From the NCBI GenBank assembly GCA_049303835.1, contig JBAQNN010000002.1, forward strand, positions 9,248 to 73,247: a DNA stretch of 64,000 nucleotides. The letters are read 5' to 3'. The position numbers and the translations under genes are program-made. The DNA comes from Minisyncoccia bacterium (GTDB lineage: Bacteria; Patescibacteriota; Minisyncoccia; Phycocordibacterales; UBA9973). Shown piece after piece: positions 48,650-49,240 of the stretch. The notes beneath the pieces are model-generated. The model was not told the DNA's origin, searched no databases, and worked only from the letters and a program-made list of their open reading frames with translations. Numbering within the stretch: position 1 is the first letter of the stretch; every line of letters begins with the position of its first letter.

Positions 48650-49171
48650 CTAGTGATCAGCGTAAAGATAGTTACTGTAGGGCCAGTTTATACACCAAAC
48701 ACCTTCACTGCCTAATGTGTAAAATTTCCATCGTTTTAATTCACAACGATTCTTATTTCCCTCATCTTCAAATTTAGTAACTAAATCGTATTTACCAGGA
48801 TACAATGCTTCATTGGAAAGAAAAGCATAGTTATAATAATCTCCGACACTCCAAGGGCCCCCTGCCGCAGTATTTATCGGATCTCTAGGAAGAGAATCTA
48901 TATATGGAGCAAGCGCAGTCTGTAAGGTATCCCAGCCAGATGAATAACTATAAACCCAACTAGTGGCAATAGGATAACGATTATAATCATTAAAATACAT
49001 TTCCAGAGCTACTTGAATCTGGTGTAAATCTGAAATTCTCCTCGCATCCCTCGCTTTCTCTCTCGCAGAATTCAAGCTAGCAAAAACAACAGACGAAAGC
49101 AGACTAATGATGGCGACTACTACCAGAAGTTCAATTAAAGTGAATCCTTTTGCTTTAGACTGCCCATTCAT
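48650..49171 (-). CDS. Type IV pilin-like protein inserted in the spc ribosomal operon
   Basis: [54 protein letters not shown]. Start at MNGQSK (ATG at 49169-49171). Confidence 0.7.
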   Translation of the reverse strand: [173 protein letters not shown]

Positions 49172-49190
49172 GAGTAAATGATACCTCAAT

Positions 49191-49240
49191 CTCCCAAAAA
49201 TAAAAACCTCGTGAACTAACGAGGTTTTTATTTTTGGGAG
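49191..49240 (-). promoter_or_regulatory. Perfect 22-bp stem / 6-nt loop hairpin between rplE and the inserted pilin gene
   Basis: CTCCCAAAAATAAAAACCTCGT-gaacta-ACGAGGTTTTTATTTTTGGGAG is exactly complementary. Confidence 0.55.

Follow-up and report, generated by a model that had tools for sequence, protein, structure and literature searches.

A type IV prepilin gene at a probable operon boundary inside the S10-spc ribosomal-protein cluster of a Nomurabacteria-like bacterium

Why does a type IV pilin gene lie between rplE and rpsZ, two genes of the S10-spc ribosomal-protein cluster, and how would it be expressed there? The question is raised by a stretch of 64,000 nucleotides (nt), hereafter the window, from contig JBAQNN010000002.1 (positions 9,248 to 73,247) of a Minisyncoccia bacterium; the host lineage is a Nomurabacteria-like member of the Patescibacteria, an ultrasmall bacterium. 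By comparing the locus with the same junction in relatives, we arrive at an explanation that we consider probable, namely that the pilin gene occupies an operon boundary typical of the lineage, with a terminator that would follow rplE on one side and a promoter that would serve rpsZ on the other. The features on which the argument turns are listed here in the order in which they would be transcribed.

49255-49821, minus strand: rplE (uL5), an open reading frame (ORF) with Pfam Ribosomal_L5 and L5_C matches on an identical Logan contig
49188-49243, minus strand: terminator-type hairpin, recognised by its perfect arms of 25 base pairs (bp), its fold energy and hairpins of the same design in relatives
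49178-49183, minus strand: candidate -10 box TATCAT, exactly 6 nt before the pilin ATG (49171)
48650-49171, minus strand: type IV prepilin gene of 173 amino acids (aa), an ORF with a Pfam N_methyl match
48619-48647, minus strand: predicted rpsZ promoter, TTGACT, 17-nt spacer, TGcTAGTAT (extended -10), from a consensus scan
48504-48618, minus strand: conserved structured 5' leader of rpsZ-rpsH, about 100 nt, from covariation
48318-48503, minus strand: rpsZ (zinc-type uS14), an ORF with CxxC...CxxC, downstream of rplE in 69 relatives
47915-48301, minus strand: rpsH, after rpsZ

The gene order rplE, pilin, rpsZ, rpsH on the minus strand is as an earlier, sequence-only reading of this DNA had described it. 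That reading gave the prepilin 174 aa; the gene encodes 173 aa from the ATG and would encode 179 aa from a TTG at 49189, a start that we rejected because relatives back the ATG and its 9-aa leader peptide. The only other contig that carries an identical pilin is 100% identical over 2241 nt and therefore tells nothing about variation between strains. For comparison we used 80 species-representative genomes, mostly labelled Nomurabacteria or Paceibacteria, whose RplE is 63-87% identical to that of the window; the gap between rplE and rpsZ was measured in 69 loci, and 16 consecutive gene junctions of the S10-spc cluster were compared. The roles assigned below to the hairpin, the promoter, the leaderless mRNA and the leader are drawn from sequence and from this comparison.

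Only two of the 16 junctions are variable, rplE-rpsZ and rplB-rpsS. At rplE-rpsZ the gap measures between 111 and 4227 nt, with more than 300 nt in 41 of 69 loci, and at rplB-rpsS it is above 300 nt in 32 of 45, while none of the other 14 junctions ever exceeds 300 nt. Pilin modules occupy at least 12 of the 68 complete rplE-rpsZ junctions and another four that lie on truncated contigs. Among the remaining cargo are a reverse transcriptase (RVT_1), a toxin of the MazF family (PemK), AAA/DUF4143 ATPases, a cytidylate-kinase-like protein and TruB. The closest homologue of the window pilin (P0002, 64% identity) also lies between rplE and rpsZ, at locus L002, where the gap holds a 98-aa membrane protein and three pilins. 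This locus is present on at least 24 contigs from several samples, and its rplE is followed by a different hairpin of the same design. In addition, the pilin encoded at 31420-31962 of the window has a C-terminal orthologue (57% identity) in the rplE-rpsZ gap of L083. More distant homologues of the inserted pilin occur elsewhere, between ligA and yqeY, beside a HIT gene, and between the halves of a split transketolase; in the context of P0010 (JGI 3300048101), four pilin genes stand between the N- and C-terminal halves of the transketolase. The junction appears to collect extra genes repeatedly, which would make the placement of the pilin typical of the lineage and not a one-off oddity, and with this comparison the surprise of finding a pilin in a ribosomal operon largely dissolves. 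The site shares with chromosomal integration hotspots a constant core gene pair that flanks variable cargo across species while other junctions stay invariant. It differs from the usual hotspots in lying inside the normally inviolate S10-spc cluster, in having no integrase or transposase among the 10 cargo proteins scanned, and in that some cargo is housekeeping (TruB, nucleotide kinases).

Some of the cargo at the two junctions deserves description in its own right. In three relatives, the rplE-rpsZ gap (L016, 5549-8455; L023, 5543-8384; L047, 5564-6958) contains an RVT_1 gene beside a gene whose C-terminus resembles a target of diversity-generating retroelements (DGRs), together with a long structured non-coding stretch. 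A gene homologous to one in the rplE-rpsZ gap of L077 is found in the window at 44289-44855; it is cytidylate-kinase-like and lies on the plus strand, opposite to its neighbours secY and adk. The rplB-rpsS gap, which in relatives (L011-L090) varies from about 60 to more than 2000 nt and forms a second insertion hotspot, is occupied in the window by about 1.1 kb (53110-54212, minus strand) of 50-57% GC in a genome of 39% GC, with only short ORFs and strong AGGAGG ribosome-binding sites. This GC-rich stretch has no Pfam, PHROGs or Rfam match and folds better than its shuffles (z about -5); foreign DNA and a large RNA are both conceivable. It is bordered by a terminator-type hairpin after rplB (54213-54243) and by a strong promoter of its own for rpsS, TTGACA-16-TGnTATTAT (53077-53104).

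If the rplE-rpsZ junction tolerates insertions, is it a point at which transcription is divided? On the downstream side, the -35 element of the predicted rpsZ promoter begins 2 nt past the pilin stop codon. The arrangement TTGACT-17-TGnTAGTAT recurs upstream of rpsZ in nearly every relative, regardless of inserts, one of them departing from it in the -35, and across 49 relatives TTGAC of the -35 is invariant and the -10 nearly so. Both promoter and leader are also present in 29 minimal-gap relatives (gap 132-336 nt). The leader pairs GGAUC (48592-48596) with GA[UA]UCC (48529-48535), leaving a bulged UA, and comprises 20 pairs in which 95% of 977 cells are paired and 16 of the 20 pairs show compensatory double changes; none of 500 shuffles reached the observed values, and slid registers gave 30-52% pairing. 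The leader has no Rfam match, even in a permissive scan of 48200-49400. Together these observations suggest that in this lineage rpsZ has its own sigma-70-type promoter and a structured leader of about 100 nt. Since both are kept with or without an insert, the rplE-rpsZ junction is most likely an operon boundary, so that the S10-spc cluster would not form one operon in this lineage: rplE would be the final gene of an upstream ribosomal-protein transcription unit and rpsZ the lead gene of a downstream one.

The structure of the leader brings to mind the binding site of ribosomal protein S8. In helix 21 of 16S rRNA, this site consists of the pairs 599-639 and 598-640, the bases U641/A642, and the pairs 597-643 and 596-644, with A642 invariant (PMC4176348). 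The leader presents invariant C-G and U-A pairs, a bulged UA whose A is invariant, and then two unbroken covarying pairs (GC 29, AU 19, CG 1; and AU 46, GC 3), an arrangement of pairs and bulge that matches helix 21, whose mimic serves S8 feedback on the spc operon of E. coli. There are two differences: the leader lies upstream of rpsZ instead of at the start of rplE, and its equivalent of 597-643 is A-U in 46 of 49 sequences, not G-C. The leader is placed in the mRNA that encodes S8, since it precedes rpsZ-rpsH, and the median gap between these two genes is 15 nt. Feedback by S8 through the leader is, by this analogy, a reasonable but unproven proposal.

On the upstream side of the pilin stands the hairpin. 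It begins 14 nt past the rplE TAA, and its arms, CTCCCAAAAATAAAAACCTCGT and ACGAGGTTTTTATTTTTGGGAG, are exact complements over 22 bp (49191-49240) around a 6-nt loop, as the sequence-only reading had noted; full complementarity extends further, to 25 bp (49188-49243, loop 49213-49218). The RNA folds with -42.1 kcal/mol (z = -9.1), and none of 200 shuffles is as stable. From 5' to 3' the hairpin is made of an A-tract (AAAAAUAAAAA), a core CCUCGU, the loop, a core ACGAGG and a U-tract (UUUUUAUUUUU); the two flanking tracts are paired to one another, and the stem is closed on the outside by CUCCC/GGGAG. A stable stem-loop whose core ACGAGG runs into a U-tract downstream of a stop codon is what an intrinsic terminator requires, and hairpins of the same A-tract, core and T-tract design, with stems of 12-15 bp, occur in the window at 10074, 54213 (right after rplB), 58590 and 62661. 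Among the relatives, rplE is followed by a perfect hairpin of this design at 17 of 40 loci with an insert, as against 5 of 29 with a minimal gap (Fisher P = 0.036), a contrast that is only modestly significant and whose statistic ignores kinship among the genomes; more such hairpins appear once mismatches are allowed. Their stems measure 9-18 bp and their sequences are not homologous to that of the window. The relative with the orthologous pilin at this junction (L002) likewise has a hairpin there. We infer that the hairpin is the lineage's usual kind of terminator, an intrinsic terminator of the bidirectional type. With Rho-independent bidirectional terminators it has in common the stem-loop followed by a U-tract, the complementary upstream A-tract, the position just past a stop codon and counterparts at the corresponding place in relatives; it is unlike typical intrinsic terminators in its unusually long and perfect stem, in the outer pairs beyond the U-tract and in its short GC core. 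The view that such a structure is most unusual within a ribosomal-protein operon did not hold up, given the same-design hairpins after rplE in many relatives and the predicted promoter of rpsZ.

Could the hairpin instead be the means by which the pilin arrived? As an attachment site, the end of a miniature inverted-repeat transposable element (MITE) or an integron-like site, it would be a recombination or mobile-element feature, and its presence at a gene-insertion hotspot is in keeping with that idea. The hairpin is the longest perfect one in the window, yet the sequence of its arm is found nowhere else there, so nothing marks it as a recombination site. The hairpins of relatives do not resemble it in sequence, minimal-gap loci (L014, L081, L085, L090) also have such hairpins, and neither an integrase nor a transposase turned up among the cargo proteins tested. 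We regard a role of the hairpin in recombination, which had been suggested from the sequence, as highly improbable.

For the pilin itself, the TATCAT box is the candidate for a promoter of its own; a -35 element was sought in the T-tract of the hairpin and no convincing match was found. A -10 hexamer 6-7 nt before a start codon is the geometry of a leaderless mRNA. In relatives, the usual module consists of a gene for a small membrane protein followed by one or more pilins, and of 15 distinct partner genes, 14 have TATAAT 5-7 nt ahead of the start, 11 of these at exactly 6 nt. The same spacing between -10 and start is seen at several other first-in-operon genes of the window and in its two complete pilin modules. 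These modules are arranged in tandem on the minus strand (30589-32307) next to the gene for transfer-messenger RNA (tmRNA; 32344-32745), each a small membrane protein plus a pilin, with TATAAT 6-7 nt before the start. The partner, an uncharacterised membrane protein of 100-140 aa with one transmembrane helix and an AL[KR][ED]FE motif, usually accompanies the pilin gene of relatives and is absent at the spc locus; it has no Pfam or PHROGs match, and neither do the short ORFs of the GC-rich insert described above. A vestige of the partner gene lying between hairpin and pilin was considered and rejected, as only 16 nt separate the two. From the T-tract by way of GGGAG to ATGAATG, the entire sequence can be aligned with that of locus L002, in which that ATG starts the partner gene, and the shared layout suggests a common origin with later loss of the partner here.

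Joined together, these elements give the explanation that we favour. The hairpin would end the high-level upstream ribosomal-protein transcript and so shield the inserted gene, whose leaderless mRNA would come from a weak promoter of its own, as in the modules of relatives. No terminator was found between the pilin and the rpsZ promoter, so transcription of the pilin probably extends through the rpsZ unit; the leader of that unit is likely to confer feedback control by a ribosomal protein. The sequence-only reading had offered two possibilities, that the pilin is placed under ribosomal-protein transcription or that the hairpin insulates it from that transcription, and we prefer the second.

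Several points weigh against this explanation, in addition to the modest contrast in hairpin frequency. The consensus terminator scan did not call the hairpin, probably because its U-tract lies inside the extended stem. The GC core is short, with 6 bp of which 4 are G-C pairs, the 25-bp stem is far longer than the stems of relatives, and the outer CUCCC/GGGAG lies 3' of the U-tract, so that a terminator does not need those pairs. Many minimal-gap relatives lack a hairpin after rplE, and read-through into rpsZ is evidently tolerated in the lineage. Finally, TATCAT is an imperfect -10 box, and the pilin has no convincing -35 or TGn element. Rfam gave little guidance: at gathering thresholds, the whole window yielded only tmRNA and tRNAs, and in the permissive scan of 48200-49400 the hairpin matched only generic long-hairpin models (plant microRNA precursors, attenuator leaders), far below threshold.

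The weak promoter, and the many relatives without any terminator after rplE, are what one would expect if the hairpin were a leaky attenuator and most pilin mRNA came from transcripts that start at the strong ribosomal-protein promoter upstream and read through it, so that the supply of pilin would be tied to growth rate; on such a transcript, a GAGG 12 nt before the ATG could serve as ribosome-binding site. The GGGAG would be buried in the 25-bp stem, however, and a spacing of 12 nt is poor. Moreover, the -10-N6-ATG arrangement recurs in pilin modules at this junction and at other loci, some of them not preceded by ribosomal genes, and hairpins are commoner where cargo is present. We think an attenuator unlikely. 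The length of the duplex raises a second possibility, that it is an RNase III processing site which separates the rplE and pilin parts of a read-through transcript, perhaps in addition to terminating. The stem exceeds two helical turns, its outer 5-8 bp beyond the U-tract are unnecessary for termination, and RNase III genes occur in related Paceibacteria (L008). Against this, the 9-18 bp stems of relatives are too short for canonical substrates, so processing cannot be the conserved function, and no RNase III gene was seen within the window; we hold this alternative to be quite unlikely. The pairing of a terminator upstream with the rpsZ promoter downstream remains the account that we prefer.

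Is the inserted gene a true pilin, and could its product be assembled? Read from its ATG, the protein has a 9-aa basic leader peptide followed by G/FTLIELL (the slash marks the cleavage site), which is the prepilin cleavage and methylation motif (Gly -1, Phe +1, Glu +5), and it matches Pfam N_methyl with E 1.1e-8, above the curated cut-off. Database searches returned 6443 homologues, the nearest of them 64-65% identical over the full length and from Paceibacteria / Minisyncoccia. An AlphaFold model built with 38 homologues (pLDDT, a per-residue confidence score, 93.2) has a helix of 52 residues (12-63) and a small globular head, and Cys143 and Cys160 are invariant in those 38 sequences. The seven best PDB matches of the model are all pilins or pseudopilins, though weak (Foldseek E 0.03-0.26, probability up to 0.97). 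The inserted gene is thus a genuine type IV prepilin gene, and the full pilus machinery is encoded in the same window:

8165-8944: PilD (A24 prepilin peptidase)
10666-11874: PilC
11881-12939: PilT
13400-15148: PilB
16864-17991: PilM

The window holds six pilins with the GFTLIELL motif, including the one in the spc region, each of which is a full-length gene that has its start codon and encodes a signal peptide; in addition there are two divergent pilin-like ORFs. With the type IV pilins and type II secretion pseudopilins (class III signal-peptide proteins), the spc pilin shares the G/FTLIELL site with Glu at +5, the long hydrophobic N-terminal helix, the small head with a C-terminal pair of cysteines, and a peptidase and assembly ATPases encoded nearby; its head domain matches solved pilins only weakly (Foldseek E 0.03-0.2).

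One of the other five pilins shares more with the spc pilin than a motif. The two regions concerned are:

49037-49147, with its counterpart at 31825-31935, minus strand: 5' block common to both pilins, from 37 identical residues and nucleotide identity
31420-31962, minus strand: paralogous pilin of 180 aa, which forms a module with the small membrane-protein gene at 31972-32307; a second module lies at 30589-31393

The two genes agree at 90% of the first 108 nt that encode the mature protein, after which identity drops abruptly to 33% of amino acids, the background level. The sequence-only reading had put this similarity at about 90% over some 120 nt with differing C-terminal two thirds, and apart from the length of the tract its description stands. 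Within the block of 37 identical residues there are 11 synonymous and no non-synonymous differences (proportion of synonymous differences, pS, 0.39; synonymous divergence, dS, about 0.54). At identical residues, 26 of 36 codons are the same (72%), compared with about 36% in background pilin pairs (binomial P = 1.4e-5), so that synonymous identity exceeds what conservation of the N-terminal motif at normal synonymous divergence would give. The same pattern is stronger in relatives:

Spc pilin and 31420 pilin, same genome: identity 0.90 in the first 108 nt, 0.33 in the C-terminus (aa)
Spc pilin and its L002 orthologue: 0.66 in the first 108 nt, 0.61 in the C-terminus (aa)
Three tandem pilins of L002, pairwise: 0.94-0.98 in the first 108 nt, 0.27-0.31 in the C-terminus (aa)
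Pilins of L051 and of L067, within genome: 0.78-0.97 in the first 108 nt, 0.26-0.52 in the C-terminus (aa)

Pilin N-termini group by genome and heads by orthologue, and in L002 the codons at shared residues are identical in 31-34 of 33-35 cases. This supports the view that the 5' segment has been homogenised by gene conversion or recombination with the paralogue 17 kb away. The proposal of recombination is upheld to that extent; its being recent is not, as a dS of about 0.5 in the block means that conversion was not recent in this genome. It could be argued that purifying selection alone, for co-assembly of the helices and recognition by one peptidase, has kept the N-termini alike, and selection on the protein is clearly strong, with all differences in the block synonymous and a pS of 0.39. 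The excess of identical codons, here and in L002, the abrupt end of the similarity and the grouping of N-termini by genome and C-termini by orthologue all speak against selection as the sole cause, which we consider very unlikely.

Several pilins with a common N-terminus, divergent C-termini and evidence of gene conversion recall the pilE/pilS system of Neisseria. In that system, one expressed gene has its variable region converted from silent donor cassettes that lack a promoter and are truncated at the 5' end. Antigenic variation of this type was considered and rejected for the window, where all six GFTLIELL pilins are complete genes and no silent cassette was observed, and where conversion has affected the conserved N-terminus, not the variable region.

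One further observation concerns neither the pilin nor its junction. At 20746-20835 on the plus strand, ARAGORN calls a tRNA-Ser with anticodon ACT (Rfam tRNA, 57 bits), not far from a tRNA-Ser(GCT) on the opposite strand; A34 in an anticodon, if unmodified, would be out of the ordinary.

Taken singly, pilin, terminator, promoter and conversion between paralogues are all of familiar kinds. What may be new is their context, a split S10-spc cluster in Patescibacteria with exactly two insertion-permissive junctions. The literature that we searched contained no description of a split S10-spc cluster in Patescibacteria or of pilin modules recurring there, and nothing specific emerged on leaderless mRNAs of the Candidate Phyla Radiation, on insertions into the ribosomal cluster or on pilins within patescibacterial ribosomal operons. 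The interest that remains lies in the two hotspots, the leaderless pilin modules, the homogenised N-termini and the covarying rpsZ leader. The leader is a candidate for a new RNA of ribosomal-protein feedback, a mode of regulation that is uncharted in this phylum. A wider reading, which we put forward tentatively and as possible, not as likely, would join these strands: the boundaries rplB-rpsS and rplE-rpsZ would be lineage-wide exchange sites at which ribosomal-protein genes act as homology arms for surface and host-interaction cassettes (pilin modules and those of the reverse-transcriptase/DGR type), homogenised N-termini would keep the pilin heads compatible with one machine, and the rpsZ leader would be an undescribed feedback RNA of the S8 type.

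Type IV pili are central to the way in which ultrasmall epibionts such as this one find and attach to their hosts. Rapid turnover of pilin heads at such a site, with N-termini kept uniform, could contribute to variation in host range.

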